Source: Myxococcota bacterium
GTDB taxonomy: Bacteria > Myxococcota > Kuafuiibacteriia > Kuafuiibacteriales > Kuafuiibacteriaceae
Length of the DNA: 64,000 nucleotides
Reading direction: 5' to 3'
Assembly (NCBI GenBank): GCA_036337945.1
Contig: JAYZDF010000029.1
Coordinates: 19,040 to 83,039, forward strand
Part shown: positions 7,143-35,335 of the stretch, in pieces
Layout: each line of letters begins with the position of its first letter
How positions within the stretch are numbered: the stretch's first letter is position 1
Translations under genes and position numbers: made by a program
The notes under the pieces: generated by a model
Seen by the model: the letters and a program-made list of their open reading frames with translations, nothing else
What the model was told of the DNA's origin: nothing
Database searches by the model: none

Positions 7143-8603
7143 TTAGAGGTAGTTTTCTAACTCCTTCTTGTATTTGTTCATTACTCTCCTGAAATTCGAG
7201 CGGTCCAGACCGGCCTTGCGAGCAGCCTCAGAGATATTCCCCCCTGCCCCCCTCAATAAACCACTGACATATTCTAATTCGAAACGTCGAACTGCTTTCT
7301 TTTTAGCGTCTGCAAAATTCAGCCCCAAATCAACTCCATGGCCAGAAGGAGGCGGCGGCGGGATTGACATCGCGACGGAGTTTCCTGTTTGTTCACGGAA
7401 TGACGTGGACAAGTCTTGCAGTTTCACAGAAGAGCCTTTCGCGAGAACAACAGCGGCCTCAATGACATTTTCAAGCTCGCGAACATTACCAGGCCAATCG
7501 TATTCAACAAATGCAGTCATGACCTCGGATTCAAAGTCATGTAGTTCCTTTGAAGACCGTTCACTATATTTGGCGAGAAAATGCTTCGCTAACAGAGGAA
7601 TATCTGACTTCCTCTTTCTCAATGGAGGCAACTGTAGAGGTATGACATTTAGTCGGTAATACAGGTCATTTCTAAAAGAGCCATCTTCCACAGACGACAA
7701 TAAATCAACATTTGTTGCAGCAATCACTCGCACATCAACTTTCCGTGGAGCGCTCTCTCCTACTCTGGTAATTTCTGCTTCTTGCAAAACGCGAAGTAAG
7801 CGAATCTGGGCCGATGACGTCATCTCGCCGATTTCGTCCAGAAATATGGTGCCGCCGTTAGCTGCTTCGAAATGTCCTATTCGAGTTTGATTCGCACCCG
7901 TAAAAGCGCCCTTCACATGACCAAAGAGTTCAGACTCCAATAGCGCCTCGGGAATAGCGCCACAATGAACAGGAATCATTGGCCCTTCATTCCGCTGACT
8001 TCTTCGATGTATTGCCCGAGCGATGAGTTCTTTACCTGTTCCTGATTCTCCTTGAATCAGAACAGATGCGTCAGAAGGTGCAACGCTCTCAATAATATCA
8101 AAAACCTGGTTCATTGCTGACGAACGACCTATGAGGTCTTCGAACTTTTCAGACATTGCAACGTGGCGTTCTAAGAAGTCATTTCGAAGACGAAGATTGT
8201 AGCGGTCAAGCGAGTTACGAACCGAGTTTTCTACATAGGCGTCGCTTTCGAAAGGACGTTTGAGCCAGGTGAAAGGAGGTTTACGAGACGAAGTGCCACC
8301 ACCATCTAGCGAAGATGAGAGCATAATAACTTCGGCTTGAGGTGACACTTCATCAAAATATCGACACAACATCTGACCGTTCATCGATTCTAAATCCTCG
8401 GAAAATATGGCCAACTGAAAATCACTCGCTGCAGCTCTTCCTATCGCCTCCGAAGCGCTTTGGCATTTCACAGCATCGCAATTAGCCTTTTCAACAATCT
8501 CTGTGAGCCGGTTCAATTCCGTCAAATCATTACTGACAATTAGAGCGCGGTGTTTTTTCGCGACTGCATTCACGAAAAACGAGGGACGCGGAGCATTAGA
8601 CAC
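7143..8603 (-). CDS. sigma-54-dependent Fis-family response regulator (NtrC-like)
   Basis: N-terminal receiver-like domain. The AAA+ sigma-54 activator domain carries GESGTGKE, ESELFGH (GAFTGA loop present: KGAFTGA) and a C-terminal HTH (NISEAARKAGLDRSNFRRVMNKY). Its stop overlaps the start of the upstream histidine kinase by 8 nt. Confidence 0.85.
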   Translation of the reverse strand: MSNAPRPSFFVNAVAKKHRALIVSNDLTELNRLTEIVEKANCDAVKCQSASEAIGRAAASDFQLAIFSEDLESMNGQMLCRYFDEVSPQAEVIMLSSSLDGGGTSSRKPPFTWLKRPFESDAYVENSVRNSLDRYNLRLRNDFLERHVAMSEKFEDLIGRSSAMNQVFDIIESVAPSDASVLIQGESGTGKELIARAIHRRSQRNEGPMIPVHCGAIPEALLESELFGHVKGAFTGANQTRIGHFEAANGGTIFLDEIGEMTSSAQIRLLRVLQEAEITRVGESAPRKVDVRVIAATNVDLLSSVEDGSFRNDLYYRLNVIPLQLPPLRKRKSDIPLLAKHFLAKYSERSSKELHDFESEVMTAFVEYDWPGNVRELENVIEAAVVLAKGSSVKLQDLSTSFREQTGNSVAMSIPPPPPSGHGVDLGLNFADAKKKAVRRFELEYVSGLLRGAGGNISEAARKAGLDRSNFRRVMNKYKKELENYL

Positions 8604-10239
8604 GGGCCTCCTCCAGATCAGCTAAGCGGAACTTACCGGTTGCCTCGCCAACTGGAAGTTCGATTATGAAACGAGTTCCCTCTCCGACTTCTGACTCTAC
8701 CGATATCTTCCCTCGATGCTTCGTCACAATCTGATGGCAAATCGACAATCCTAGACCACTCCCTAATTTATTCTCACTTTTGGTCGTAAAGAATGGTTCA
8801 AACAAATGTCTTAGATTCTGTTTACTGATTCCTGAACCATTATCCTGAATTATGACCGTAACAAACGAGCGGTTCGTCTCGTCATTTTTCGAACCCTCAC
8901 GAATCTTGATTTGAATAAGTCCCTCTGATTTCGGAAGCGAGTGATATGCGTTTTGTAATAAATTGCGAAAAAGTTGATGGAGGAGCGCAACATCACCCCG
9001 TATGGGAGTGAGATTCTCATCGATCTCACAATCTATCTGTGCAGTGGTGCCATAATCGCGAATAAAAATACGAACGACTTCTTCTACGATTTCATCCACC
9101 TGAATAGATTCTTTGTGAAGTTTCGCAGAACCATGAACGAAAGAACGAAGAGAATCGATAATGCGGCGACATCGATCAGCACTCACCTCAATGTCATGCA
9201 GCACCTCAAGACCATCGTCGTTATCTACCAACTCTTCACGAAGTGATTCCGTCAGGAGCTTGATCGATGCCAGCGGGGAATTGACCTCGTGAGCCACTCC
9301 ACCGACAAACAAGCCTAAAGAAGCAAGCTTCTCGCTTTGGTGTAATTTCGCCTCTAGTTCTCTTTCCTCGGTAACATCGCGGTAATAACAGACGAAACTG
9401 TCTTTCTCGACATACCTTTCATCGGGATCACTGATAGGCATCGGATATGACCAAACATGAAGCATTCTGTTATGTCTGGCTTCAATATCTACACCCCGCG
9501 CAGAGCTATCTCCCTGCGTCATTGGGCACTTTTCACATGGTTCAGAAGTTCCCGCGACTAACTCAAAGCATTTCTTGCCGGGAACCTGACTTACAGGAAG
9601 TTGCGAATGATCTGCATAAGCCAAGTTGGCCCGAAGCACCTCGTGTTCGGAGGAAATAATCGCTACAGGATCAACAATGGCATCAAAGGTTCTTTCCCAG
9701 ACGACCTTCGCATTGAGTAATTGTTGCGTTCGATGGGCGATCTTTGCGTCCACCGAGTGACTCATGTTTTCTAGTTGCTGAGCCTGGGAATGAGCTAATT
9801 TGCGAAGTTCTATGTTTTCGCGACGTAATTCAAAACGCTGAAACGCTGCTAATAGTTGTTCGTTCAGGTCGTGCCTCGTCCAAGGCGTATTCAAAATTCC
9901 GTACGTCGGTTCGAAGGCAGACAGAGTGGGCAAGTCTGACGCGCTGCACATCAGCAGACCCTGCGTGGTCGGCCAGTCGTTATGAACGACCTCTAAAAAC
10001 TCAATGCCACTCTCGTGCCCTAGGTCAAGGCCGCAAAGAACCACACCAATGCTCTGAAGCTCTAGTAGTTCTTTCGCGGTTCGAGCGGAATCTGTGACTA
10101 TCATCTCGAACTTGCGCTGATTAAGATCAGATTCCAAGGATCGTAAGACCTTTTTATCTCGATGAACAACTAGCAAGCTCGCCGCAGGTAAAGCATTCAA
10201 CGACTCGAAAGGTTTGGATTTTCGTTCTAAGTTGCCCAA
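8596..10239 (-). CDS. sensor histidine kinase with N-terminal receiver-like domain and PAS domain
   Basis: H-box (HEVNSPLASI), N/G boxes (LLQNAYHS; DNGSGI; GSGLGLSICHQIV) and an N-terminal REC-like segment. It is co-oriented with and overlaps the NtrC-like regulator. Confidence 0.8.
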   Translation of the reverse strand: MGNLERKSKPFESLNALPAASLLVVHRDKKVLRSLESDLNQRKFEMIVTDSARTAKELLELQSIGVVLCGLDLGHESGIEFLEVVHNDWPTTQGLLMCSASDLPTLSAFEPTYGILNTPWTRHDLNEQLLAAFQRFELRRENIELRKLAHSQAQQLENMSHSVDAKIAHRTQQLLNAKVVWERTFDAIVDPVAIISSEHEVLRANLAYADHSQLPVSQVPGKKCFELVAGTSEPCEKCPMTQGDSSARGVDIEARHNRMLHVWSYPMPISDPDERYVEKDSFVCYYRDVTEERELEAKLHQSEKLASLGLFVGGVAHEVNSPLASIKLLTESLREELVDNDDGLEVLHDIEVSADRCRRIIDSLRSFVHGSAKLHKESIQVDEIVEEVVRIFIRDYGTTAQIDCEIDENLTPIRGDVALLHQLFRNLLQNAYHSLPKSEGLIQIKIREGSKNDETNRSFVTVIIQDNGSGISKQNLRHLFEPFFTTKSENKLGSGLGLSICHQIVTKHRGKISVESEVGEGTRFIIELPVGEATGKFRLADLEEARV

Positions 10240-10249
10240 GCGGGTCTAA

Positions 10250-11359
10250 ATGTACCCACCCAAGAGATTTTTCGCACCCCCTAGGTTAACTCCTCTCCGA
10301 CAACTCACACATGCCCCATGCCGGACAAATATGGTAGTTGAACAGTTGATGCGGAGGAGCGGGACAGCGTTAACGGTCGCATATACGTGGCTTACTACAT
10401 GCTTCATTGCCACCCACAGCTTCGCTTATGGTGTTCCGGACAGCGCAGGGAAACCCAACACTCAAGAGCGGATTTTACTCGTGCTCACTAACCAAATTAG
10501 ACAATCACCGCACGACTGGCCAGATTGGGATACCAGCTTATCCCCGGACACCTCTCTTGTTCCTCTCACTGAACAATCTAACCTGTTCGACGCTGCGAGG
10601 TATCACGCAGATGATATGGCCGACCATAACCATTTCGCTCACGAAAGCTCCGACGGGACTCCATTTTCCTCGAGAATCCAAAGGTACTTCCAAGGCGCGT
10701 CGGGTGAAAACATCTACAAGAGCACAAATATAGACCCCTACGCAGCAATGACAGCGTGGATGAACTCAGAAGGTCACCGCATCAATATTCTACGACCTGA
10801 ATGGCGTCTACTCGGGACGGGCTATGCGCTAGAGGGCCGTTTTCATTATTACGTCCAAAATTTTGGTCGCTCGGGAGGCATGACTACGCCACTCATTCCC
10901 GCCGCCGTCGCTTACTCCCTCGACTCAGGTACAATTCGAGTTCTTGCTAATTATTACGACGAAACCAAAAATGACCCTGTAAAATTAGAGGTCAGCGTGG
11001 GAGCTCGCTGTATTGAGCTTACGAACGCTACTGGCGCAAAAGGCAACCGTACGTACCAGAGCGACCAGACAACGCCTAATACCTGTGCGGAAGTGGTATT
11101 TCACGCGACAAGCGCGAGCGGAGCAATTTTTCGATATCCATCGTCTGGCGCACTACTGGTCGGCAATGATTGCGATAAAGAGTTTCAAGTCACTGCTCCG
11201 GCTGCGGATGCTTGTCTCACTTCCGCCAGCGGTTCCTCTGCGACTTACATTGATGCAGAAGCCGGAGGTTGCCGAAATTTCGCAGCAGACCTAACCAGGC
11301 TAGACACCTTTCTGGTAATTCTTGGACCGCTTATTTTGATTCGACGTCGCCGGCGCTAA
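10250..11359 (+). CDS. secreted CAP/SCP/PR1-like domain protein
   Basis: CAP-domain motifs (HYTQVVW-like: the context HNHFAHESSDGTP... GHRINIL.. W..LGTGYA). A signal peptide follows internal Met28/Met34 (ALTVAYTWLTTCFIATHSFAYG), so the true start is probably around 10331-10349. Confidence 0.55.
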   Translation: MYPPKRFFAPPRLTPLRQLTHAPCRTNMVVEQLMRRSGTALTVAYTWLTTCFIATHSFAYGVPDSAGKPNTQERILLVLTNQIRQSPHDWPDWDTSLSPDTSLVPLTEQSNLFDAARYHADDMADHNHFAHESSDGTPFSSRIQRYFQGASGENIYKSTNIDPYAAMTAWMNSEGHRINILRPEWRLLGTGYALEGRFHYYVQNFGRSGGMTTPLIPAAVAYSLDSGTIRVLANYYDETKNDPVKLEVSVGARCIELTNATGAKGNRTYQSDQTTPNTCAEVVFHATSASGAIFRYPSSGALLVGNDCDKEFQVTAPAADACLTSASGSSATYIDAEAGGCRNFAADLTRLDTFLVILGPLILIRRRRR

Positions 11360-13952: not shown

Positions 13953-15425
13953 ATGATGCAGTCACTCAGTCATGAAAATGGGAAAGAATCCGCGATAACT
14001 CTTATTGGCGTAGCCCCTGAATCGAAAAACATGAGTCGACTCAGTGATCAGTTAGACGCACAGGCATTTCTCCCTGATCACGCCTCACTTCTTGCCGCTT
14101 GCAATAACAGCTCAAAGCCCATCGTGATGGTGCTCCCGGCCCACAAGCCTTGGCTTATCCTGAAAGCCGCAAGGCATCCCAACGTTTTGCGTCTTGTCGT
14201 TTTTTACACCCACCAATCCAGCCCATCACGAATCAAACAAGCCCTTACCCGAGCCGCCTTCGCCCTCGTCGACCAGACTATCGTTTGGAGCATCGACGAG
14301 ATCACCTCGGCCGTTAGATCTGGCGCGGACCCTGATCGGATTATTTCCGCGCAACAAACAAACATTGTAGCGCATATACTCGACGAACAGCCCAGGCGTG
14401 CTCAGTCTGAAGCCGCCGCAAGCTTTGGTCTCGACGTCGCTGAAATGACTGGCACCATCCGATTACTCGAAAAGCTTTCCCCAGACAAAGGTGTAAACGT
14501 CATCAATTATCACCGAATCCTTCCTCCCGACGAACACCGAAGATACACGCGACCGCAGCAAGCCCTAGCCTCTCCCATATTCGAAATCCAACTCGAAGAA
14601 TTCGCTAATAGGGATGGTTTCGTCGACCTTGAAAATGTCAGAGATCGAAGCGCCGAGGGCAGCACAGGAATAACATTCGATGATGGTTACGAAGATAACT
14701 TTCGTGTCGCATTACCAGCGCTAAAAAAATGGTCTGTTCCAGCCTGGATTTTCGTCGTAACAGGCCAAGTCGGTAACGCTAACTCGTTATGGTGGGATTA
14801 CATAGGAGACGCACTTTTCGCGCTATGGGAGCAGAAGTCTGCGGAGCTCGAGCACCCGTCTCTACCCATACAATGTGGAGAGCTTTTGAAAACGCGTTCG
14901 ACCTTACAGGCCCGCAGACTCATTTCCGAAATTCTAACTGAACTTAACGCCACAAACGAGCACACCAGAAAAGACGTTTCAGATGTTTTGCGAAAGCTGT
15001 CAGGCCACAGCGAGCAGTCCACGATGCTCTCGTGGGAACAGGTTAAGGAGATGCACGCCTCTGGGATTCAGTTCGGGTCACATACGAGAAATCACGTCTG
15101 CCTCGACGAACTTTCCAGCAAAACGGCGAAGGAAGAAGTCCGAAGTGGGCAAGAAGACCTTGAGAAAGTTTTAGGGGACCGTGCCAAAAAGAGCGTTGCC
15201 TTACCACGTGGAAAACTCGGGCCTTTCACCGAAGAGACACTAAGGGAAGAAGGTTTCGAATCAGTGATGACAACAATTGCAGGTGTAAATAGAAGCTCTG
15301 ATAAATCACTGTTCGTTCTAAGGCGTGATGGAAAAATGCTCACTCTGCGCGGACGTCATCATCCTGCAAAAATGCGACTTGAATTATCTGGATGGCTCGA
15401 CCGTGCGCGGCAACTGCTTCGCTAG
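13953..15425 (+). CDS. polysaccharide deacetylase (NodB-homology) family protein with N-terminal extension of unknown function
   Basis: The C-terminal half has NodB-type motifs (ITFDDGYEDNF; H..HVCLDELS). The N-terminal extension of about 230 aa has no recognisable domain. Confidence 0.6.
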   Translation: MMQSLSHENGKESAITLIGVAPESKNMSRLSDQLDAQAFLPDHASLLAACNNSSKPIVMVLPAHKPWLILKAARHPNVLRLVVFYTHQSSPSRIKQALTRAAFALVDQTIVWSIDEITSAVRSGADPDRIISAQQTNIVAHILDEQPRRAQSEAAASFGLDVAEMTGTIRLLEKLSPDKGVNVINYHRILPPDEHRRYTRPQQALASPIFEIQLEEFANRDGFVDLENVRDRSAEGSTGITFDDGYEDNFRVALPALKKWSVPAWIFVVTGQVGNANSLWWDYIGDALFALWEQKSAELEHPSLPIQCGELLKTRSTLQARRLISEILTELNATNEHTRKDVSDVLRKLSGHSEQSTMLSWEQVKEMHASGIQFGSHTRNHVCLDELSSKTAKEEVRSGQEDLEKVLGDRAKKSVALPRGKLGPFTEETLREEGFESVMTTIAGVNRSSDKSLFVLRRDGKMLTLRGRHHPAKMRLELSGWLDRARQLLR

Positions 15426-15437
15426 GATACTGTTCGT

Positions 15438-16253
15438 TTACCTATCGAGTACAAAAGTAACAGGCACAGGAATCCACATCCCTACAACCGCACCGTCTTG
15501 TATAGCGGGCCTAAATCGCCAGTTTTTCTTCGCGTGCCGGACGGCGCTTTCGTCGCAGCCGTACCCAATCCCCTTGAGGATCTTCACTTTTTCAACGCGT
15601 CCGCTGGCCCCCACGTAAACTCGCAGCATCACACGCCCTTCGATATCGTTTTTGCGGGCCTCTTCCGGATACGGGGGCACACGATCGAATTCGGACGTTA
15701 TGAACTCTGGCGGGCTGTCTTCAAGATCGCCTCTCCCGGGCCCTTTTCCATTACCCGATGCAGGAGCGACTCTCTCCGTCGTTTTACTCCCCGGCGCCAA
15801 AGTATCGTCGGTTGGATCAGCGAACATATTTCCGCCACCGTCAATCGCTCTCGCGGCCACGCCACCCCCCATGACGGTTGAGGACATGTCGACCGAAAAG
15901 CCCATCGGTGGAGGTTGTGGCTTTGGCGGTGGAGGCTCATTACTAGGCGCCGGCTCTGCTTTTGGTTGTGCCTTGTTTTTCCTGACTGGCACACGTGGTT
16001 TTTTCTTTTTGACTTGAGCCGTCTTTACCTTGGGTTTGGGTTTGGGTTTTGGCTTAGGAGGCTCAGCAGGTTTTGGAGGGTCCGGTGCCTTCTTGACTAC
16101 TGGTTTTGGAGGCTTGGGTTTCGTGTTCACAATTTTCATGCGAACCTTCTTTGGACGAGGTACTTTTTCGCGTGCCTCAATATCATTGGCCATAAGCAAG
16201 ATAACGCCATGCAGAAGGACACTCGCGAGTGTTGCAATGCCTATAGACTTCAA
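15438..16253 (-). CDS. tonB: energy transducer TonB
   Basis: N-terminal TM helix, a proline/lysine-rich spacer (PKPPKPVVKKAPDPPKPAEPPKPKPKPKPK) and a C-terminal TonB domain (PPYPEEARKNDIEGRVMLRVYVGASGRVEKVKILKGIGYGCDESAVRHAKKNWRFRPA). Confidence 0.8.
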   Translation of the reverse strand: MKSIGIATLASVLLHGVILLMANDIEAREKVPRPKKVRMKIVNTKPKPPKPVVKKAPDPPKPAEPPKPKPKPKPKVKTAQVKKKKPRVPVRKNKAQPKAEPAPSNEPPPPKPQPPPMGFSVDMSSTVMGGGVAARAIDGGGNMFADPTDDTLAPGSKTTERVAPASGNGKGPGRGDLEDSPPEFITSEFDRVPPYPEEARKNDIEGRVMLRVYVGASGRVEKVKILKGIGYGCDESAVRHAKKNWRFRPAIQDGAVVGMWIPVPVTFVLDR

Positions 16254-16716: not shown

Positions 16717-17364
16717 CTAGTCGCCTCGCTTACACAGCGTATCCAGTCGTGCTGTAAGTGTGCGCTGAAGTCCGTCAGTACTCGAGATGAAGCCTTTGAC
16801 CTGCGCTTTGAAAAAATTGAATGCAACGACAGCAGGTAAAGCCACGGCCAACCCAACGGCCGTAGCAACCAGGGCCTCGGAAATGCCAGCCATTACCGCA
16901 GAGGCGCCGCCAGCCGCTTGCGATGGGTCAGACAAAGATAGATCTTGGAATGCCTTGATAATACCAAGAACAGTTCCAAGAAGTCCGATAAACGGCGCGT
17001 TATTACCAAGAGTTCCGAGAAATACCAGCCGGGACTCATACCTCGCTTTTTGCCGACCCAGTTCTGCTGACATCATTTCGCGAACGGCGTCAGGGCCCAA
17101 AGAAAGATGTTTGAGGCCAGTCGCAACCACTTGCGTCTCCATTCGATCCTGTTCTGACAACCAGGATGTCGCGTCTTCTATATGCCCGTCATCTAGCCGT
17201 TGACCGAGTTCAGCACCAACTTCTCTAACTTCCAATTTACGAGAGAAATAGAAGTATAGCCGCTCAAGCATGATCGCAATTGACACGATACTCAGGATGA
17301 CGAGTAGCCATAAAACCCATTCCGCACCTAAGAGCGCGAAAGCATTCATCGAACGTTCAAGCAT
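16717..17364 (-). CDS. exbB: MotA/TolQ/ExbB proton channel protein
   Basis: Three TM helices and the conserved C-terminal region (GLLGTVLGIIKAF...AGISEALVATAVGLAVALPAVVAFNFF). Confidence 0.85.
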   Translation of the reverse strand: MLERSMNAFALLGAEWVLWLLVILSIVSIAIMLERLYFYFSRKLEVREVGAELGQRLDDGHIEDATSWLSEQDRMETQVVATGLKHLSLGPDAVREMMSAELGRQKARYESRLVFLGTLGNNAPFIGLLGTVLGIIKAFQDLSLSDPSQAAGGASAVMAGISEALVATAVGLAVALPAVVAFNFFKAQVKGFISSTDGLQRTLTARLDTLCKRGD

Positions 17365-17462
17365 GGTTGGATACTCGCACCGACTGCAGCAAATACGTCA
17401 AGGCCGACTTGGTAATAATTGCAGGTATTTTCGAGTGACTCTGTAACCCGAGGTGTGTGGGT

Positions 17463-17723
17463 TTACGCGGCGTCTTCGGACGGACGCTTGTTGGGGTTGA
17501 TGGGAATGATGACGACACTCTCTTGTTCCTCAGGTTCTTCATACCGAGACTCTTCGTCATACGACGACGGAATAGGCTCCCGATAGACGGGAATCTCAAG
17601 ATGTATACGAGGCCGTGATGATTCTCGCTCGCGTTGCTCTTCCTCGCGCCTAATTGCATCTATTATGTAAGCATCTAGCATCTTTTCGTCCTCTACTTCG
17701 GCAAAACACCTAATAAGCACCAC
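17463..17723 (-). CDS. small acidic hypothetical protein
   Basis: An 86 aa ORF rich in Glu/Arg/Pro with no recognisable domain. It lies upstream of exbB on the same strand. An alternative-frame ORF (17357-17659) overlaps it and is less likely to be real. Confidence 0.3.
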   Translation of the reverse strand: MVLIRCFAEVEDEKMLDAYIIDAIRREEEQRERESSRPRIHLEIPVYREPIPSSYDEESRYEEPEEQESVVIIPINPNKRPSEDAA

Positions 17724-18096
17724 GGAAATTCGTTATGTCCTATATCGGTCCGCTTTCGTTTTTTGGTGACTCTTTTTCATCTCTCACTCAAAAAACGTCC
17801 CATTGACCCAATAAATTCCACCCGTCGGAGTGCTGTGACCAACTTCACATCAAGAGCGAAAAGTTCGCCCTCTATATTACTAGTCGGCCGTAGCCACGAA
17901 ACTGTGACCTAAAATCGGTAAAGGCACCAATTTTTGTCCGTCAAACAAATTTCTCGCCGGTTTACCCTTTTCGGGACGAGCGAGACATAGAGTGCCCTGA
18001 AATTTTCAATCATATGTCTCAACATGCGGTTTTTTTTGATTTTCTTTGGGTTAGCCCATAGCGAAGGAACAAAAATCGAGGTACGAGAACATCAAT
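17724..18096. promoter_or_regulatory. divergent intergenic region of about 370 nt upstream of the BMC operon
   Basis: A long AT-richer non-coding gap separates the minus-strand small ORF/exbB-exbD-tonB cluster from the plus-strand BMC operon. A ribosome-binding-site-like GAGG precedes the 18097 ATG. No specific operator was recognised. Confidence 0.3.
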
Positions 18097-18723
18097 ATGT
18101 CCCAAGGTGTGAAGCTCAGAGCCTACCAATTTCTCGATAGCCTGCAACCACAACTCACGTCGCATATTTGCACAACTTGCCGTGGGTATTTTCCGGTTCC
18201 AGGAATGGCGTCCCTATTCGTAGAGATCGCGCCGGGAATGGCCATCCATCGCCTGATCGACCGTGCCCTCAAAGCCACGGACGTTCAGCCTGCTACCTTG
18301 ATCGTGGAACGAGCGTTTGGGATGTTGGAGATTCATCACAACGATAAGGGCCAGGTCTTAGCTGCGGGCGCGGCAATCCTTGACCAACTGGGGGTATCCG
18401 AGACAGACCGCGTGAAGCCGCGCGTTGTATCGAATACCATTATTCGCTCTATCGAGCCTTACCATGCCATGATTGTTGATAAAATTCGTTTTGGTTCGAT
18501 GATCAGCCCGGGTGAATCGTTGTTAGTGATGGAGACACAACCCGCAGCATACGTTGCCTTCGCAGCGAACGAAGCTGAGAAAGCCGCGAATGTTACCCTC
18601 GTCGACGTAACACCATATGGTGCGTTCGGGCGACTTTACCTAGCTGGAGACGAAGCAGAAATCGACTCCGCTGCACAAGCCGCAGAAGCTGCCATTGCAA
18701 GCATCAGCGGAATAGAACAATAA
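18097..18723 (+). CDS. bacterial microcompartment shell protein, tandem-domain BMC-T, with ~35-aa N-terminal extension
   Basis: This 208 aa protein has two BMC-like segments ([25 protein letters not shown]...[11 protein letters not shown] and [31 protein letters not shown]...[26 protein letters not shown]). Both resemble BMC domain cores: an alpha/beta fold with a D/E-A-x-x-K-A helix. The subtype (permuted PduB/EutL-like versus PduT-like) cannot be decided by eye. Confidence 0.6.
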
Positions 18724-18759
18724 CCCAAATTTAAACTGTAACGATAAGAAGGAAGAACG

Positions 18760-19062
18760 ATGTCGGAAGCACTCGGAATGATCGAAACAAAAGGTTTCGT
18801 AGGAATGGTTGAAGCCTCAGATGCCATGGTTAAAGCAGCCAAGGTCGAACTCGTAGGTTATGAGAAGATTGGTGGAGGTTTCGTAACCTCAATCGTACGT
18901 GGCGATGTTGCAGCGGTGAAAGCAGCCGTAGAGGCAGGCGCGCGAGGCGCTGAACGCGTTGGCGAATTAGTGAGTGTTCATGTCATTCCACGCCCACACG
19001 CAAATATCGATGCCGCATTGCCGCTAGGTCGAGCACCTGCCGCATCAGGAAAAGGCAAGTAG
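18760..19062 (+). CDS. bacterial microcompartment hexamer shell protein BMC-H (PduA/EutM/CcmK family)
   Basis: It aligns nearly end-to-end by eye with PduA: [59 protein letters not shown]...VHVIPRPH. Confidence 0.9.
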
Positions 19063-19065
19063 AAC

Positions 19066-19359
19066 GTGCTCCTTGGCAAGGTCATTGGGACCGTCGTTGC
19101 CAGCAAGAAAGAACCTGAAATCGAAGGGCTAAAACTGCTCGTAGTGAAAGGTTCAGAGCTGGACGGACAAGCCAGCGGTCCAATTGTTGTTGCGGTAGAT
19201 GCCGTTGGTGCAGGCGTAGGCGAACTCGTTTTGTACGCAGCGGGCTCTTCGGCGCGTCAGACAATTCAAACCAAAGACAAGCCCGTGGACCATGTCGTCA
19301 TGGCGATTGTCGACCAAGTCGAGGTCGAAGGTTCACTGCTGTATAACAAAGATAACTAA
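19066..19359 (+). CDS. bacterial microcompartment vertex pentamer BMC-P (EutN/PduN/CcmL family)
   Basis: A 97 aa protein with the EutN-like pattern ([12 protein letters not shown]...LKLLVV.....[31 protein letters not shown]). Confidence 0.9.
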
Positions 19360-19378
19360 TCAAAGCGGGTCCCACTAA

Positions 19379-20842
19379 ATGGTTCAGATAGATGACGCAA
19401 AAATTGAAGAGATCGTGGGTAGGGTCGTCGATCGACTTGTAGGAAGTACTCCACCTTCTTCGTCGTCGGAGCCTTACTGTGCACCGGCTCCCCCAAAATA
19501 TGATCCAGGACCTGCTATTCATACCTCGGGTCTATCCGGTGTTTTCGGTGATCTTGACTCTGCGGTTGCTGCCGCTCACCGGGCGCACGCCGCCCTCGAA
19601 GCCTCTAGCTTAGAGCTACGGTTTAAAATCATCGAGGCTTTCCGGGATTGCGGTCGTCGAGAGGTCGCTAACCTCGCCCGAATGGCGGTTGAAGAGACCG
19701 GTCTTGGAAGATACGACGACAAGATAAATAAGAATCTGCTCGTTATTAATAAGACACCCGGGCCAGAGATTCTAAAGCCTGTTGCCGTATCCGGCGACAA
19801 CGGCCTCATGCTTACTGAACGTGCTGCATATGGCGTTATTGGCGCTATCACGCCGACGACCAACCCTACCGAGACGATCATTTGCAACGGCATTGGTATG
19901 TTATCGGGTGGTAATGCGGTGGTCTTCAACGTTCACCCAGGCGCGAAAAACGTTTGTAACTACCTCGTCGACAAGATCAACAAAGCAAGTGTTGCTGCTG
20001 GCGGGCCTGACAATCTAATTTGTAGCATTGGAGAGCCAACTATTCAGTCAGCGCAAGCCCTCATGACGCACGCAGGTATCCGACTATTGGTGGTTACTGG
20101 CGGACCTGGAGTCGTGAAAGCCGCCATGAAGTCAGGCAAACGAACTATTGCCGGAGGACCTGGCAATCCGCCCGTTGTAGTGGACGAGACGGCTGATATT
20201 CTTCGAGCAGCAAAAGGTATTGTCTCGGGCGGTAGCCTCGACAACTGCATTGTCTGTACGGCAGAAAAAGAGATTTTGGCCGTTGCTGAGATTGCTGACC
20301 TCCTAAAAAGGCAGATTTGTGAAAATGGTGGCTACGAAGTCAAAGGTCCGAACATCAGCAAGCTGCAGCGACTGGTTGTCGCTGAGGATGGCCTCCACCC
20401 GAACAAAGAATGGGTGGGTAAGGACGCCTCGAAGATTCTATCGGCGATCGGCATTACGCCGCCTAGTGGTGTGAGAACCATAATCGTAGAGGGCGATGAA
20501 CAAAGTCCCTTCGTGCAAGGAGAGTTACTCATGCCTGTGCTGGGCTTTGTTCGTGTCCCCAGTGCAGAAGAAGGCATAGCTATGGCCAAACGCGTCGAAC
20601 ATGGCTTTGGACATACTGCCGCGATGTACTCAACCAACATCAATAATCTTCACGCAATGGCTCGTTCCATCAATACCTCGATTTTCACAAAGAACGCGCC
20701 AACTTATGCCGGTCTTGGACTTGGAGGCGAAGGCTATACCTCCTTTACGATCGCCTCTCCGACCGGTGAAGGCCTCACTAATCCAATCCATTTCACACGC
20801 GAAAGACGATGCACACTAGTCGACTCATTCCGTATCATTTAG
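19379..20842 (+). CDS. CoA-acylating aldehyde dehydrogenase (PduP/EutE-like) with N-terminal encapsulation peptide
   Basis: ALDH fold with the catalytic-Cys motif SLDNCIVCTAEKE (compare FDNNLPCIAEKE in PduP) and the glycine-rich NAD site (GGPGNPPVVVDETADI). The N-terminus has a short amphipathic helix (DDAKIEEIVGRVVDRLVG), then a Ser/Pro-rich linker (STPPSSSSEPYCAPAPPKYDPGP), as in BMC encapsulation peptides. Confidence 0.9.
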   Translation: MVQIDDAKIEEIVGRVVDRLVGSTPPSSSSEPYCAPAPPKYDPGPAIHTSGLSGVFGDLDSAVAAAHRAHAALEASSLELRFKIIEAFRDCGRREVANLARMAVEETGLGRYDDKINKNLLVINKTPGPEILKPVAVSGDNGLMLTERAAYGVIGAITPTTNPTETIICNGIGMLSGGNAVVFNVHPGAKNVCNYLVDKINKASVAAGGPDNLICSIGEPTIQSAQALMTHAGIRLLVVTGGPGVVKAAMKSGKRTIAGGPGNPPVVVDETADILRAAKGIVSGGSLDNCIVCTAEKEILAVAEIADLLKRQICENGGYEVKGPNISKLQRLVVAEDGLHPNKEWVGKDASKILSAIGITPPSGVRTIIVEGDEQSPFVQGELLMPVLGFVRVPSAEEGIAMAKRVEHGFGHTAAMYSTNINNLHAMARSINTSIFTKNAPTYAGLGLGGEGYTSFTIASPTGEGLTNPIHFTRERRCTLVDSFRII

Positions 20843-21513
20843 CCTTCACCCTCCTCGTTTTTTCTGGTGTTGCCTGCAGCAGTGACCGATACGTCGGCTC
20901 CCTGGGCAAGTCAGGTATGTACGCAAACCGTGGTTATGGCGTTGTTATACAACTCAACGATCGTGACCTACTGAGTCGGTGGGAATATATCGACCCGCAC
21001 AAGATCGACATCTACAAGGAATCCGTTCGCCCTAGCCTCACCCAAGAAACGATAGATCTAAATGGTGATGGCACTCTTCATCACGACGAAGTTGTCGTGC
21101 AGTGGAAACCAAACTTCAGACTCGTTCATAAAGATGTCGCAACTTCTCGCATTGATCTTGGGGTAGATATTCTCGGGGGGCGAAATAAAGCTGCAGATTT
21201 TGGTGCCTATGTTCGAGCTACCGTGAAGAATGAATTTGGTGTCGAAACCAGCAAAGGAGATTGGAAGGCTTTACGGCTGGGCCCGGACTTTAGGGCGTAC
21301 TCAACCCGGCTCAAAGAAGATGGCCTATTACTCGCAGCCATCGATCAAGGTAACTTTTCTGCGGAAGAAGGCGCTGTGCGCCGACAAATTGTATGGGCTC
21401 GGCTGAAGTCATTAGAACTTACAGAGCAAGAAGAAAAGGATTTTGGATCATTTTTGCGCTCGCTGCTCCTGAATTCTAAGGCGGGAAGGCAAACAACCTG
21501 GGAGAAATATTGA
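20809..21513 (+). CDS. hypothetical protein encoded inside the BMC operon (possible signal peptide; EF-hand-like DxNxDG loop)
   Basis: A 234 aa protein with no family recognised. The N-terminus (MHTSRLIPYHLAFTLLVFSGVAC) looks like a signal or lipoprotein peptide. An alternative start at Met37 (20917) would remove it. It has a DLNGDGTL motif. Its start overlaps the AldDH stop by 34 nt. Its stop overlaps the downstream BMC-T start (ATGA). Confidence 0.35.
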   Translation: MHTSRLIPYHLAFTLLVFSGVACSSDRYVGSLGKSGMYANRGYGVVIQLNDRDLLSRWEYIDPHKIDIYKESVRPSLTQETIDLNGDGTLHHDEVVVQWKPNFRLVHKDVATSRIDLGVDILGGRNKAADFGAYVRATVKNEFGVETSKGDWKALRLGPDFRAYSTRLKEDGLLLAAIDQGNFSAEEGAVRRQIVWARLKSLELTEQEEKDFGSFLRSLLLNSKAGRQTTWEKY

Positions 21514-22121
21514 TTCAGTCTACGCCACTAATGGTCGACGGTGATGCCATCGCCGTTTTTGAAATAGCGTCAATTGCCCGTGGCGTTGTTGTATTGGATC
21601 AAATGGCAAAGCGTGCCTTCACTGAAATCATATCGTCTAAAACCGTCTCCCCTGGCAAATATCTCATTATTTTGACCGGGTCTGTTGCGGAAATAGAGGA
21701 AGCAAGTTTTGCCGCGCTTGAATCGATGCAAGATGATCACATCGACCATATTATCCTACGAGACCCTCACCCTCTTTTGCGAACAACCTTCGCAAATAAA
21801 CTCGAACCCAACTTCCGAGAGTCTGTTTCGATATGCGAATTTTTTACACTGAGTAGCACGATTCACGCGCTCGACGTAATTCTGAAGAGCTCCGGCGTTG
21901 AAGTTATTGAGTTACGTCTGGGCGCAGGGCTAGATGGTAAAGGAATCTTTACCGTAACAGGCTCTTTGGATACGATTGAAGCCGCATGTGACTTAGTAGA
22001 AAGTAATATTGACCATACGAAGATTCATCGCATTGAGAAGATTGCCCAAATCCACGAAGACCTGCCCAAGCATTTACTTGGCGCCGAGCTTCCCGCTTCG
22101 CGCGGCACACCGTCTAAATAG
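21510..22121 (+). CDS. bacterial microcompartment tandem-domain shell protein BMC-T, PduT-like, lacking the Fe-S ligand cysteine
   Basis: This 203 aa protein aligns by eye with PduT across both domains. Domain 1: AIAVFEIASIARGVVVLDQMAKRAFTEIISSKTVSPGKYLIILTGSVAEIEEA versus PduT [53 protein letters not shown]. Domain 2: HALDVILKSSGVEVIELRLGAGLDGKGIFTVTGSLDTIEAA. PduT Cys38 corresponds to Ser47 here (TCC at 21648-21650). Confidence 0.8.
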   Translation: MIQSTPLMVDGDAIAVFEIASIARGVVVLDQMAKRAFTEIISSKTVSPGKYLIILTGSVAEIEEASFAALESMQDDHIDHIILRDPHPLLRTTFANKLEPNFRESVSICEFFTLSSTIHALDVILKSSGVEVIELRLGAGLDGKGIFTVTGSLDTIEAACDLVESNIDHTKIHRIEKIAQIHEDLPKHLLGAELPASRGTPSK

Positions 22122-22323
22122 CGGAAACGGTTTTTCCGTGCACAAAAACTAAAAATGCCATCGATGGGCGTCGACTTCCTTCTCGCATCGCAAAGTGAAT
22201 AGCATCTAGACTCCAACCCAACGCGGCCATCTCATTGAGTTTCTCCTCAATGGTATCATCCGTTACGGTAGAGAGCTCGATAACCTTATAAGATGGATTG
22301 TCTTTCGTATCAGTCGTTGTCAC
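22114..22323 (-). CDS. DUF4177-like small protein
   Basis: A 69 aa protein with the pattern YKVIELS....D..EEKLNEMAALGWSL typical of DUF4177. It is the last gene of the minus-strand hem operon. Its 3' end overlaps the BMC-T 3' end by 8 nt in convergent orientation. Confidence 0.45.
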   Translation of the reverse strand: MTTTDTKDNPSYKVIELSTVTDDTIEEKLNEMAALGWSLDAIHFAMREGSRRPSMAFLVFVHGKTVSAI

Positions 22324-23047
22324 AGCTGCCCCCTACTTTATCGAGAAGAGCTTCAATCAGCAATTCAAGCTCTGGATTGGCTGGACAGACCAGGGAATTG
22401 AGCCCCAGTTTTTCGGCATGCTCTCTCGTATTTTGACCGATAACTCCTACAGTTCGATAGCTCAAATATCCAAGGGCCGTGTCATGAGAACGGAAGAAAG
22501 AGTCCAATGTTCGCCCAGAAAAAAACAGCACATCCGTTATCGCCGGATCTGGCAGAGCGTCATGTCTGCACATCTCAATGGAGTAGATGGCTAATGTACT
22601 GACCGTTACTCCTTGCTCTATGAGTGGCGACACAAAAGAAGCCTTCGCCTGTTTTGCTTGAGGGCAAAACACTCGCAATTCCTTCATGTCTGCCTCAGCC
22701 CTAGAGAACCAATCAAGGATGCCTTCTCCATCAAACCGGTCCGGCACAAAGATGTCTCGCTCTTGCAACCATTGCCGTGCGGCGGCAGCCGTACGTCCGC
22801 CCACTGCGAGTATTTTCACGTGTTGAGGAGGTACCACATGCTCAGTCTTCATATAGCGAACCGTGTTCGCAGAAGTGAGCACTAAATAATCAAAATCTTC
22901 CCAAGAAGGCCATGTAACGGAAATCCGACGTGTCTGTATGTACGGAATGACTTCAACTTCGGCTCCGTGTGCTTCCAAAAGTCGTGTGACTGCTATGGAC
23001 TGTTCTCTTTGTCGAGTAACAAGAACTTTTCTGCCTACTAAACTCAT
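22310..23047 (-). CDS. hemD: uroporphyrinogen-III synthase
   Basis: A 245 aa protein with the HemD-like two-lobe pattern (VLVTRQREQS..LLEAHGAEV..PYI; VLFFSGRTLDSF). It lies immediately downstream of hemC in the operon. Confidence 0.7.
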   Translation of the reverse strand: MSLVGRKVLVTRQREQSIAVTRLLEAHGAEVEVIPYIQTRRISVTWPSWEDFDYLVLTSANTVRYMKTEHVVPPQHVKILAVGGRTAAAARQWLQERDIFVPDRFDGEGILDWFSRAEADMKELRVFCPQAKQAKASFVSPLIEQGVTVSTLAIYSIEMCRHDALPDPAITDVLFFSGRTLDSFFRSHDTALGYLSYRTVGVIGQNTREHAEKLGLNSLVCPANPELELLIEALLDKVGGSCDND

Positions 23048-31812: not shown

Positions 31813-34350
31813 TTAGTCACCAAGCAAACGCTTGAGCGCGCCAATCTTTTTGCGGACCGCGGCTTCGTCCGCAGGTTTGCGAGCCAGCTCCAGATATTTT
31901 TCGTACGATTGCATAGCTTTTTTAGGTTGATTCAATCGACCATAGAACAAACCAAGCTGTTTATGCGCACAAGCGTTTTTAGGTTCCTTCGCGGAAAGCT
32001 TCAGAAGCGCTTTCACTCCTTCCTGGGGATAATTTAGGTGTTTCAGCGCTACGTCCTTACAAGACAGCGTTTTTTGCACTCTCTGAACCTTCTTGACCTC
32101 GCGTCGAGGCTTCTTATCGCCTCCTTGCTCCAAAGCTTGACGCCCGCGCTGAATAATCTTGGGCGAGAATTCTCGAGTTTCCATATCCCTCAAAAGAGAC
32201 TTGGCCAACTTTCTCTCATTGAGCGCAACCGCGGCGCGAAGTTCTCCCAGCGTCGCTCTTTCTAAAACCTCCGGGCTCACACCTTTTGAAAGTCTCGCTC
32301 GAACAAACTGCTGTTTTGAGCGCTCAAAGTCGGCAACTGCCAAAGATTTTTCTGCCGCTTCGAGCCAGGATTTTGCGGTTCGAGGTGCAACTAATCTCGG
32401 GATCGCAGCCTTGCTGTTCGAGCCAGCAGGCCCATTAGAACCCTTTGCGACAGGTCTGACCAATTGAGGAGCAGGAGTGGTCGCTATTGGCGTTTCAGCC
32501 ATCTGATTTGACAAACGTTTGCGGCCAATCAACAGCCCAATGGCAATGGCACAAAGAATAGCGCCCGCCATAATCGCAATCCGGTTCTGAAGCTTTCGAT
32601 TCGGTGCAGGTCGAACACCCAGGTTTTTCGCATCAATTTTGATATTCGGTCGGGGTTTTTTGCGCCCGCCCCCTTTTGCCCCGGCACGGCGTTTCTCCTG
32701 TTTTCGCTCTTGGACACCAAAGGTCCGTCGCGCGACAGCAGCGCTCGGCAGAGCCGAATTTGGCTCCTCAGAGCTCGGCGCACTCGACCATTCGGCTTTT
32801 TGACCTTGCCCTGCCTGATTATTTTTACGAGTTCGAACAATTTCTGTGGCGTCAGAAACGAAACCGGTGGCCCTAACCTGTTCGGTTCGTTCCAAGGTAC
32901 CAAAGTCGTCCGTCGACTCTTCGATCGATTCATTTTGACCGAGAAAGGCTTCAGACTCGCGAACTGTTTGCGCCCTAATACTGGCCTTCGGTTTCGTCAA
33001 AGACTCGGTGACTACAACTTGCTCGACCTGAGCGACGGCGTCACCAGCGGCCAGAGTTTCTTCCTCGGACATGGACCCATAGCGTTGAGAAGGAACAACA
33101 AGCGACGAGTTCCCTGGGGTAACGCTCTTACCTACCGACAAGTCTTGCAATGTCTGTTGATTCCGAATTTGTCGGGTCTGACGCTGTAACGCAGCATCAG
33201 GACGAGTTCCATCGGTTGGCTCTAAGTGACCAAACCGAACTTGTTGGGACGGATGAGTCGCTGTTGCAACCTCAGTCGCTGCGTTCTCCATCGCTGCTTG
33301 CAATGGCGCAGCAGGTGGCGCGGCGGCCACACCCGCCTTTGCGGGCTCTTTTCGTTCGAGACTGCCTGCAATCTCATCCAGCGCTTTCGCAATCGGCTCG
33401 GCCGACTCGAAACGATTGGCTGGGTCTTTTGCGAGCATTCTATCAAGAAGCTTCGACAAGTGTTTACCGGCAGATGTTTCTCGTTCCAACCTCCGATGCG
33501 CTTGCTTCGTAACGTTCGAGAGAATCTCCTTTACGGTCGAACCCAGAAATGGTCGCTCTCCGGTCAGCATAGTGTAAAGAAGCACACCGAGTGAGAACTG
33601 GTCCGCGCGTCCGTCGACTTCTCTCTGTTTTTCTTGCAGGCGTTCCGGCGCGAGATAGGACGGGGTGCCAAGAATATGACCGTGATTTGTCAGGCGTGTA
33701 CTCTCAGACTGGGCAATTCCAAAATCGATAAGCACAGCCTGACCACCCTCGCGAACAAAAATATTTGAGGGCTTTATGTCTCGATGAATAATCCCGCCCT
33801 TGTGAGCAACGGCCAGTGCTTCGGCTACATCACGCGTGATACGGACCGCCGTCGCGTCCGCAAGCTGCTTCTTTCGTCTCATCAGGGAGGCCAATGATTC
33901 ACCTTCCAGAAGCTCCATCACGTAGAAATAGATACAACCTGGACGGTAGATTTCTGCTCGGCTCATATTATCGGGCTCATGTCCGTAATCGAAGATTGTA
34001 ATAATTGCGGGATGTCTAAGACGTCCGACAATTTTGGTCTCACGGAGAAAACGCTGAATTGTTTCTTCCCTAATTTCTGGCTCTGACACCAGGTCAGGTT
34101 CTAATGTCTTGATTGCAACGAATCGTTCAATGTGCGGGTCCCATGCCTCATAAACAACACCCATACCTCCATGGCCCAACTCACCAAGAACCAAGTAACG
34201 CCCTAGCTTTAGTCTCTTTTCGGAATCCTCGGATCGCCCGCGGATGCGTTCAGATATCATCGACGGCAGCTCTGATAGCTCTATCCCCAATCGACTTAGC
34301 CGCTCATTGGAGCCTTTTGAATGGTTAGCTGACCCGGTCACAGACATCAT
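31813..34350 (-). CDS. serine/threonine protein kinase with C-terminal TPR region
   Basis: Hanks-type kinase motifs (GHGGMGVVYEA; VAIK; HRDIKPSNIF; DFGIA; SYLAPE). A long low-complexity linker with a TM segment is followed by a C-terminal TPR-like region. Confidence 0.85.
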   Translation of the reverse strand: MMSVTGSANHSKGSNERLSRLGIELSELPSMISERIRGRSEDSEKRLKLGRYLVLGELGHGGMGVVYEAWDPHIERFVAIKTLEPDLVSEPEIREETIQRFLRETKIVGRLRHPAIITIFDYGHEPDNMSRAEIYRPGCIYFYVMELLEGESLASLMRRKKQLADATAVRITRDVAEALAVAHKGGIIHRDIKPSNIFVREGGQAVLIDFGIAQSESTRLTNHGHILGTPSYLAPERLQEKQREVDGRADQFSLGVLLYTMLTGERPFLGSTVKEILSNVTKQAHRRLERETSAGKHLSKLLDRMLAKDPANRFESAEPIAKALDEIAGSLERKEPAKAGVAAAPPAAPLQAAMENAATEVATATHPSQQVRFGHLEPTDGTRPDAALQRQTRQIRNQQTLQDLSVGKSVTPGNSSLVVPSQRYGSMSEEETLAAGDAVAQVEQVVVTESLTKPKASIRAQTVRESEAFLGQNESIEESTDDFGTLERTEQVRATGFVSDATEIVRTRKNNQAGQGQKAEWSSAPSSEEPNSALPSAAVARRTFGVQERKQEKRRAGAKGGGRKKPRPNIKIDAKNLGVRPAPNRKLQNRIAIMAGAILCAIAIGLLIGRKRLSNQMAETPIATTPAPQLVRPVAKGSNGPAGSNSKAAIPRLVAPRTAKSWLEAAEKSLAVADFERSKQQFVRARLSKGVSPEVLERATLGELRAAVALNERKLAKSLLRDMETREFSPKIIQRGRQALEQGGDKKPRREVKKVQRVQKTLSCKDVALKHLNYPQEGVKALLKLSAKEPKNACAHKQLGLFYGRLNQPKKAMQSYEKYLELARKPADEAAVRKKIGALKRLLGD

Positions 34351-34387: not shown

Positions 34388-35335
34388 TTACAGCTTCAGG
34401 CGAATCGCCTTGTGAAAGTTGGAGAATCGGGCGGGAAGTCGACCTGGTTGTTCTCCGTCAATATCTAATAAAACGTTAGCCTCATCTCTAAAGGGGATTG
34501 CCTGAATCATTTTTCCGCGAGAAGAACGCACGCTTTGCCAGTGAATCGCGCGCCCAGCGTATAAATCGGAGGTCTTGAGCACTTCTTTCATACCTGCTCG
34601 AATCTGAGTCACTACATCGAATTCGCCGTCGTCAATCTTCGCATTGGGAGCCATATGCATCCCACCGCCAAAATATTGCCCATTAGCTATCGCAACCGTG
34701 ACAAGTGGTTCATCAACAAAGACTTCATCATCTACACTTACACGAACATGTTGGCGTCGGTATGAGGCGAGCGCGCGTAAAGTATTTATATAAAAGGAAA
34801 TGCGTCCACCGAGAGCCTTTGACCCTTTGTTGATTTTATCTGCCACCACTCCAGAAAGACCAAAACTCGCAATATTAAGAAAAGCCTGTCCTTTTGGTTG
34901 TCCTCGGTGGTCGACAAATTCGACCCAACCGAGATCACATGGCTGCGTCTTCTCTCCAGCTAAATGGGCGACAGACCCAGGAATAGTCCCGGGTAAATCA
35001 AACAATCGTGCAAAGTCGCCACCGGTTCCTGATCGTACCGCACCAATAATTATATCGTCTTTGACAAGTCGAGGATTACTGCCGTCTTTCTCGCTTTCAA
35101 ACAAGCCATTTACAACCTCGTTCATTGTGCCATCGCCACCTACAGACACAATCATTTCATAGCCGTCCATCACTGCTTGCTTTGACAAACGAGTCGCGTC
35201 GCCTGGGGCTTTCGTAAATGCGAAATCCCATTTCGTCAGAACTTTATTTAACGCTCGCTGTAGCTCCGGCCAATATCTTCCCGTCGCGCCACTTTGGCTC
35301 GCTGGATTAACAATTACGTAGGTAAAGTAACTCAT
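34388..35335 (-). CDS. diacylglycerol/lipid kinase family protein (YegS/BmrU-like)
   Basis: DAGK catalytic-domain pattern (YVIVNPASQSGATG...VSVGGDGTMNEVVNGL...GGDFARL). Confidence 0.75.
   Translation of the reverse strand: MSYFTYVIVNPASQSGATGRYWPELQRALNKVLTKWDFAFTKAPGDATRLSKQAVMDGYEMIVSVGGDGTMNEVVNGLFESEKDGSNPRLVKDDIIIGAVRSGTGGDFARLFDLPGTIPGSVAHLAGEKTQPCDLGWVEFVDHRGQPKGQAFLNIASFGLSGVVADKINKGSKALGGRISFYINTLRALASYRRQHVRVSVDDEVFVDEPLVTVAIANGQYFGGGMHMAPNAKIDDGEFDVVTQIRAGMKEVLKTSDLYAGRAIHWQSVRSSRGKMIQAIPFRDEANVLLDIDGEQPGRLPARFSNFHKAIRLKL

Follow-up and report, generated by a model that had tools for sequence, protein, structure and literature searches.

The HO type of bacterial microcompartment (BMC) comprises 41 loci, mostly from Deltaproteobacteria, and its function has been called 'enigmatic' (PMC8217296). 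In HO type I the main locus encodes only shell proteins and an aldehyde dehydrogenase (AldDH) tagged with an encapsulation peptide (EP) (PMC8217296, Supplementary Data 2). A satellite locus encodes two further copies of the shell pentamer, BMC-P, and in 24 of 30 genomes there is also a pfam00596 class II aldolase, the candidate signature enzyme of HO type I (PMC8217296). The overall HO shell set consists of one hexamer (BMC-H), three copies of BMC-P, two double-stacking tandem-domain trimers (BMC-Tdp) and one single-layer tandem-domain trimer (BMC-Ts), the second BMC-Tdp being located in a satellite (PMC8217296). The locus of Haliangium ochraceum was listed in 2014 as a MIC, a metabolosome with an incomplete core (PMC4207490). 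Here we describe a BMC locus at positions 18097-22121 of a 64,000-nt stretch from a Myxococcota bacterium (assembly GCA_036337945.1, contig JAYZDF010000029.1, positions 19,040 to 83,039 of the forward strand), referred to below as the window. The analysis leads us, with good though not complete confidence, to regard the region as the main locus of an HO type I BMC in a marine or uncultured Myxococcota genome.

The locus was at first taken for an uncharacterised one. It is in fact a known, catalogued kind of locus (PMC8217296; PMC4207490), and the nested gene for a predicted lipoprotein is its sole peculiarity. Its content is the same as that of the main locus of H. ochraceum (Hoch_5812-5816), with one BMC-Tdp, BMC-H, BMC-P, an EP-tagged AldDH and BMC-Ts. 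Both loci lack a phosphotransacylase (PTAC), an alcohol dehydrogenase and a signature enzyme in cis, both belong to the same host phylum, and the function of both is unknown. Among solved structures, those from H. ochraceum rank first for BMC-Tdp and BMC-P and a close second for BMC-Ts; for BMC-H the H. ochraceum protein is the best natural match. The two loci differ in the lipoprotein gene, which here sits nested between the genes for AldDH and BMC-Ts and which most HO-type loci lack, in G+C content, about 50% here, and in the chromosomal context, which here runs from ZapA to a hem operon.

Shell proteins and aldehyde dehydrogenase

Six co-oriented open reading frames (ORFs) occupy 18097-22121 on the + strand, with spacings of +36, +3, +19, -34 and -4 nt. 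The tight packing and the gaps agree with the preliminary description, as do the gene coordinates. The features are as follows.

18097..18723, + strand: BMC-Tdp, a tandem-domain double-stacking trimer of the CcmP/CsoS1D/HO-T2 type (BMC domain, CcmP model, PDB match)
18760..19062, + strand: BMC-H, a single-domain hexamer and the main shell tile (Pfam BMC, EutM-like)
19066..19359, + strand: BMC-P, a pentamer that caps the shell vertices (Pfam EutN_CcmL)
19379..20842, + strand: CoA-acylating AldDH of the PduP/EutE type (Aldedh, NF011927)
20809..21513, + strand: 234-residue orphan, a nested passenger gene for a predicted lipoprotein, probably not a BMC component
21510..22121, + strand: BMC-Ts, a tandem-domain single-layer trimer, PduT/HO-T1-like (two BMC stretches, PduT model)
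17724..18096, no strand assigned: divergent intergenic region of 373 nt upstream of the first shell gene, with a promoter role proposed from its position only

The operon promoter would presumably sit in this last region, by position. Neither a sigma-70-like site nor an Rfam match was found in 17724..18096. In the wider interval 17300-22500 no Rfam family was recognized either, and signals for promoters or terminators did not rise above chance. The G+C content of the window is about 50%.

The domain searches with Pfam and NCBIfam recovered the BMC, EutN_CcmL and Aldedh domains. They bear out the full shell inventory that had been proposed, with genes for one hexamer, one pentamer and two trimers. 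These four genes cover three geometric classes of shell protein: hexamer (BMC-H), pentamer (BMC-P) and pseudohexameric trimer, the last of these in two kinds.

BMC-Tdp contains a BMC domain and matches the NCBIfam CcmP model over its full length (246.7 bits). The closest protein in the PDB is HO-5816 from the 5v74 shell of H. ochraceum (E 4.5e-82), which shares 64% identity with it over 204 residues. VERAFG, its gating motif (E71/R72 at 18307-18312), is kept in the form VERA[FY]G in 79 of 81 BMC-Tdp homologues, and the Glu and Arg presumably gate the pore, as in CsoS1D and CcmP. Directly before the sequence RGYFP, residues 25-28 (18169-18180) form a CTTC motif, which is present in 49 of the 81 homologues, a sample biased by the use of CTTCRGYF among the search patterns; one Cys is replaced in most of the others. 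HO-T2 of H. ochraceum has GKTA aligned to this motif.

BMC-H matches the Pfam BMC domain with 103.8 bits. Its best natural PDB match is HO-5815 (5djb, E 9e-46), an engineered tandem BMC-H fusion (6ner) ranking first. BMC-P matches EutN_CcmL with 96.9 bits, and the PDB entry nearest to it is the HO shell 5v74, through its BMC-P chain (E 3.7e-32).

In BMC-Ts, Pfam recognizes two BMC stretches, and the PduT model scores 92 bits. Among the PDB matches 3nwg comes first (E 3e-22), with the H. ochraceum BMC-T1 5dih a close second (E 4e-21). The pore residue is Ser47 in KTVSPGKY (codon 21648-21650), and at the aligned position 3nwg has Cys whereas 5dih has Ser, so that BMC-Ts shares the pore Ser of HO-T1. 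The position is Ser or Thr in all 57 homologous BMC-Ts proteins. With Ser rather than Cys at the pore, an iron-sulfur cluster is, by comparison with PduT, not expected.

The AldDH had been described as CoA-acylating and EP-tagged, and this description holds. The protein matches NF011927, the BMC-type acylating subfamily, with 626 bits. Its best solved relatives are 5jfl and 4c3s (E about 1e-130), which are CoA-acylating enzymes of the PduP type from GRM-type BMCs. The catalytic Cys293 (codon 20255-20257) lies within CTAEKE, a sequence also present across the AldDH homologues of other loci. An exact-sequence look-up of the AldDH found no record.

The alignment of the AldDH to its solved relatives starts at residue 52, and residues 1-51 lie outside the catalytic core. 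This N-terminal extension of about 50 residues carries a predicted EP, IDDAKIEEIVGRVVDRLV, at about residues 4-21 (19388-19441), from which a Pro/Ser-rich linker extends as far as residue 51 or so. An amphipathic motif of the form KIxEIVGRVVxRL or xIxxLVxxVVxRV is kept at the N-termini of the homologues in other loci, and a variable Pro-rich linker then follows. A conserved helix followed by a linker is the anatomy expected of an EP.

Probable HO type I assignment and the missing enzymes

An alignment of BMC-Tdp was used to scan one genome per species. The scan found 245 relatives, from which 80 loci were kept; loci are given here and below as L numbers. Almost all of the 80 are from Myxococcota, including the isolate Hyalangium versicolor. 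The order BMC-Tdp, BMC-H, BMC-P, AldDH, BMC-Ts is recurrent, with 63 AldDH and 57 BMC-Ts genes located downstream of BMC-Tdp. The BMC-Tdp family is large, reaching 7603 proteins at E < 1e-40 among the candidates scored.

Several features that characterize HO type I are found in the window. No enzyme other than AldDH is encoded with the shell proteins, the additional gene being that of a predicted lipoprotein without enzymatic signature. The AldDH carries an EP by sequence, with residues 1-51 outside the core and the conserved amphipathic motif. The source is a Myxococcota metagenome-assembled genome, in keeping with the Deltaproteobacteria and Myxococcota that host the type. As for the HO clades of BMC-Tdp ('apricot/S1D-like'), BMC-Ts ('auburn_HO'), BMC-H and BMC-P, the comparison covered the ranks of the PDB matches, on which membership of these clades is putative. 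Set against the published catalogue, then, the gene content fits the main locus of HO type I, and the satellites are the part not found within the 64-kb window.

The enzymes that would complete the core were searched in the whole window. All ORFs of at least 50 residues were compared by phmmer with the shell proteins, the AldDH and a sequence taken to be that of E. coli FucA. The coverage was extended by Pfam searches on most of the large ORFs and by the existing Pfam annotation of the near-identical contig L001. No phosphotransacylase (PduL/Pta), alcohol dehydrogenase, aldolase, lyase or dehydratase was found among the ORFs scanned in the 64-kb window. By phmmer the window encodes one BMC-P and one BMC-Tdp, with no paralogue or extra shell gene. 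A core reduced to AldDH, with no signature enzyme in cis, had been claimed in the preliminary description, and AldDH is indeed the only such enzyme in the locus and among the window ORFs scanned; a complete core would bring signature enzyme, AldDH, phosphotransacylase and alcohol dehydrogenase together. The lack of a signature enzyme in cis is a hallmark of HO type I, whose further components are encoded at a distance. That description had named a signature enzyme sitting just outside the window as grounds against its own reading. The catalogue comes close to this for the type as a whole, with the aldolase in 24 of 30 type I genomes (PMC8217296).

The same absence could be read in another way. 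The locus might be a self-sufficient minimal metabolosome without satellites, in which one BMC-H, a single BMC-P and two trimers enclose an AldDH that scavenges a diffusible aldehyde of cellular or environmental origin, with no dedicated signature enzyme to produce it. Besides the absence of another shell gene or an aldolase in the 64 kb, the regions within 10 kb on either side of the 80 related loci contain one BMC-P per locus and no class II aldolase (BMC-P and the same FucA sequence as queries), and six of the 30 type I genomes have no aldolase (PMC8217296). However, the catalogue states that all HO loci have a BMC-P triplet and two BMC-Tdp, distributed over main and satellite loci (PMC8217296), and an absence from 64 kb says little for a genome of several Mb. 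Loci with BMC-Tdp as their only BMC gene also exist among the relatives. They are L004 (10001-10645) and L038 (about 10001-10567), with BMC-Tdp about 71-81% identical to that of the window and no other BMC gene within 10 kb, and L038 shares its genome with the main locus L005. Both fit the description of the satellite BMC-Tdp in HO genomes. We therefore consider a self-sufficient metabolosome unlikely. L004 stands between a Ser/Thr kinase gene and, by eye, an aminoglycoside-phosphotransferase-type gene.

As the main locus of an HO type I compartment, the region would work as follows. The shell would self-assemble like the homologous shell of H. ochraceum, and the EP would bring AldDH to its lumen. 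The enzyme that makes the aldehyde would be encoded at another site in the genome. Judged by analogy from other HO type I genomes, it may be the pfam00596 class II aldolase, with a sugar phosphate as its substrate and its gene kept together with two more BMC-P in a satellite locus. Inside the shell AldDH would convert the aldehyde, NAD+ and CoA into acyl-CoA, thereby confining the reactive aldehyde. As PTAC and alcohol dehydrogenase are missing in cis, either unlinked enzymes would recycle the cofactors or the gated pore of the double-stacked trimer BMC-Tdp would allow their exchange.

Comparison with other BMC types places the locus further. The canonical aldehyde-oxidising metabolosomes (PDU, EUT, GRM and PVM types) have the same shell of hexamer, trimer and pentamer tiles and a PduP/EutE-type AldDH with an N-terminal EP. 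Unlike them, the present locus includes a CcmP/CsoS1D-type double-stacking trimer, and no signature enzyme, PduL/Pta, alcohol dehydrogenase or regulator is found in the locus or window. The HO AldDH and BMC-Tdp are phylogenetically nearest to those of the sugar-phosphate utilisation (SPU) types (subtypes 5 and 7) (PMC8217296), and this proximity suggests an aldolase-derived aldehyde as substrate. The SPU main loci contain pfam01791 (DeoC-type aldolase) and pfam02502 (RpiB), whereas neither occurs here. The substrate had been stated as unknown, and we agree. No demonstrated native function of the HO type was found in the literature after 2021, and a literature search for the Hoch locus tags found nothing.

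The nested gene for a predicted lipoprotein

The only gene of the locus that encodes neither a shell protein nor AldDH is the 234-residue orphan at 20809-21513, which has no Pfam or NCBIfam match. The preliminary description had singled it out as an orphan; the role of a candidate enzyme does not fit with what the sequence predicts, a calcium-binding lipoprotein. Relatives are few, with seven in a word-indexed search and about 54 clusters (50% identity) at E <=1e-10 among 1.84 billion representatives.

The N-terminus reads MHTSR-LIPYHLAFTLLVFSGVA-C23: an n-region with positive charge precedes the hydrophobic h-region, and the lipobox closes with SGVAC. The lipobox Cys23 (20875-20877) is invariant in 42 homologues of 22-53% identity, and nearly all members of the family have a lipobox-like tetrapeptide. 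The sequence xxRYVGS after the Cys and the start MHxGR are conserved, and the hydrophobic stretch itself is not. A shorter gene model, as annotated for P0003, was rejected on account of this conserved start and of the conservation upstream of the internal Met37.

Further into the protein, residues 83-94 (21055-21090) form an EF-hand-type loop, DLNGDGTLHHDE, of the form DxDxDGxIxxxE. D83 and E94 are invariant in the 42 homologues, and D87 and G88 are nearly so. The family profile cross-matches giant multi-EF-hand proteins exactly over these residues. The loop suggests that the protein probably binds Ca2+, a putative property at this stage.

In the structure model the protein is an alpha/beta sandwich with a Mog1/PsbP-like fold, onto which PsbP, Mog1 and LpqN can be superposed. 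The bacterial lipoproteins LpqN (6e5d) and DcrB (6e8a) and Bacteroides BT_1490 (3hlz) have the same fold with only 5-16% identity, and the orphan differs from Mog1/PsbP-like proteins by the inserted EF-hand-type loop and by matching no Pfam family. The fold matches families rich in extracytoplasmic lipoproteins. It suggests a non-enzymatic protein, and nothing points to catalysis. Motif, conservation and fold together make an exported, lipid-anchored lipoprotein the most likely identity of the orphan.

A role of the orphan as BMC cargo or as a shell-associated scaffold, with the hydrophobic N-terminal helix serving as EP, was also considered. The gene stands between the cargo and shell genes, and the model has an N-terminal helix at residues 9-22. 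This helix is unpacked on the domain, with pLDDT < 50 for residues 1-24. Its sequence is not conserved, while the Cys that follows is invariant, and the arrangement of n-region, h-region and lipobox is the classic one. With the EF-hand-type loop, a fold typical of exported lipoproteins and the occurrence of the gene in genomes without BMC genes added, this role deserves hardly any credence, and the orphan was rejected as an enzyme or cargo.

The genomic distribution of the orphan also bears on its role. It is located between AldDH and BMC-Ts in the window, in L001, in the contig of P0005, and in L002, L003, L006, L009, L010, L015, L023, L086 and L091. In the contig-cut fragments L089 and L090 it is beside only BMC-Ts or only AldDH. 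More divergent copies, without BMC genes, occur in the same chromosomal neighborhood in P0162 (L083), P0174 (L084), P0150 (L085) and P0167 (L087), where no shell or AldDH gene is present at the orphan site. In this neighborhood SMC, FtsY, ZapA and 5-formyltetrahydrofolate (5-FTHF) cyclo-ligase are followed by a small ORF in divergent orientation, the orphan, a small ORF in convergent orientation and hemD-hemC-hemA. Scanning metagenomes with an alignment of 13 orphan sequences yielded only four loci. The question of whether the orphan co-occurs with the shell set has a divided answer: it does so in at least 14 loci, and it also stands without BMC genes in L083-L085 and L087.

The presence of the orphan at the same site without BMC genes marks it as a resident passenger and not as cargo. 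Its function is independent of the compartment, the genes of which flank it on both sides in this lineage, and it is probably co-transcribed as a passenger. In a rough neighbor-joining tree, which is not robust, three of the four BMC-less copies fall outside the BMC-embedded group. A gain of the BMC genes around a pre-existing orphan gene would fit this tree, which is too weak to set a gain apart from a loss. In about 50 HO-type loci BMC-Ts directly follows AldDH and the orphan is absent.

Extra genes seem to occur repeatedly at the AldDH/BMC-Ts junction. In another HO sub-clade a family-I inorganic pyrophosphatase gene (PF00719) is located there, in L005 (12852-13406), L024 (6851-7396), L025 (17199-17744) and L043 (about 15086-15757). 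PF00719 was confirmed for the first three with E values of 1e-51 to 1e-54, and the L043 gene was assigned by sequence similarity only. The junction of L025 and L043 has an insert of 3-5 kb that includes an ORF with Gly-Glu repeats; in L025 the product has DUF1565 and a right-handed beta helix after an apparent lipobox, as in a secreted protein. The AldDH/BMC-Ts gaps of L028 and L031 are of a similar size. In L086 a gene for a 502-residue protein without Pfam match (3393-4901) follows BMC-Ts in the same orientation, and a gene for a sigma factor of the extracytoplasmic function (ECF) type comes next, an arrangement not seen in the window.

Some points weigh against the interpretation given so far. 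The BMC-P triplet, the second BMC-Tdp and the aldolase are not found in the 64-kb window, and membership in HO type I is shown for the main locus only. The pathway from aldolase to AldDH is drawn by analogy. The lipoprotein call is a prediction from motif, conservation and fold. The orphan gene overlaps the stop of AldDH by 34 nt and the start of BMC-Ts by 4 nt, and among the loci that keep this embedding, at least 14 in number, identity goes down to about 30%; so close and lasting a coupling might stem from a functional tie to the compartment.

Such a link might consist in a Ca2+-dependent extracytoplasmic binding or sensing front end, perhaps working with TonB-ExbB-ExbD, that captures or imports a compound whose breakdown feeds the BMC. 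It would explain the co-transcription, and the overlaps and the conserved embedding speak for it. The Mog1/PsbP/LpqN-like fold is also in its favor, as folds of the PsbP/LpqN type serve as binding or adaptor modules. If it were true, the ligand of the lipoprotein would be a first physiological clue to the HO substrate. TonB/ExbBD genes are divergently adjacent to the locus in the window and in L001, L003, L010 and L015. In L002 the adjacent genes are ExbB and ExbD, and next comes a TonB-like ORF (phmmer 179 bits) without recorded Pfam match, and in L006, a locus cut by the contig end, ExbB and ExbD are adjacent. However, TonB/ExbBD is absent from L009 and L023, both of which carry the BMC. The lipoprotein gene itself persists at the same site in the BMC-less L083-L085 and L087, most HO loci do not have such a gene, and other lineages carry unrelated genes at the junction. 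A lipoprotein coupled to the compartment is therefore very unlikely, and we retain the passenger interpretation.

Surroundings of the locus and meaning for the HO type

The TonB/ExbBD cluster and hemXACD were also considered as functional partners of the compartment and rejected, since their synteny is conserved in the lineage with and without the BMC, and L009 and L023 lack TonB/ExbBD. Most of the TonB/ExbBD-hem synteny is also found around the orphan in the BMC-less genomes. These neighbors had been presented as distinctive of the locus; being lineage synteny, they hold no information on the function of the compartment.

Two small ORFs without Pfam match flank the BMC locus, at 17463-17723 (- strand) and 22114-22323 (- strand), and the upstream one encodes a very acidic product. 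Homologues of one or both stand beside the orphan in the BMC-less L083, L084 and L087.

Elsewhere in the window, 35335-39344 (- strand) encodes a 949-residue FAD-linked oxidase (FAD_binding_4, FAD-oxidase_C) beside a CCG/4Fe-4S protein, a pair resembling glycolate oxidase or D-lactate dehydrogenase. Facing the oxidase, 39475-41001 (+ strand) encodes an aromatic amino acid/histidine ammonia-lyase (PF00221, 667 bits). Nothing links the oxidase pair or the ammonia-lyase to the BMC. A sigma-54 activator with a receiver domain lies beside a hybrid histidine kinase at 7143-10239 (- strand), and 31813-34350 (- strand) and 54130-57285 (- strand) each encode a large Ser/Thr protein kinase, in one case as a fusion with an FGE-sulfatase-like domain. 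These kinases and the activator are typical myxobacterial signaling content.

For structural and synthetic-biology studies of microcompartments the HO shell serves as the main platform, and it is structurally the best-studied BMC shell (PDB 5v74). The present locus brings the HO substrate no nearer to testing. It corrects an attractive but mistaken view of the region, in which a minimal metabolosome of a new kind harbored an orphan enzyme, and it adds a natural HO example from an uncultured marine Myxococcota lineage. It shows in addition that the AldDH/BMC-Ts junction tolerates passenger genes, that of a predicted lipoprotein in the present locus and that of a pyrophosphatase in others. When a gene in a BMC operon has no annotation, it should not be presumed to encode cargo.

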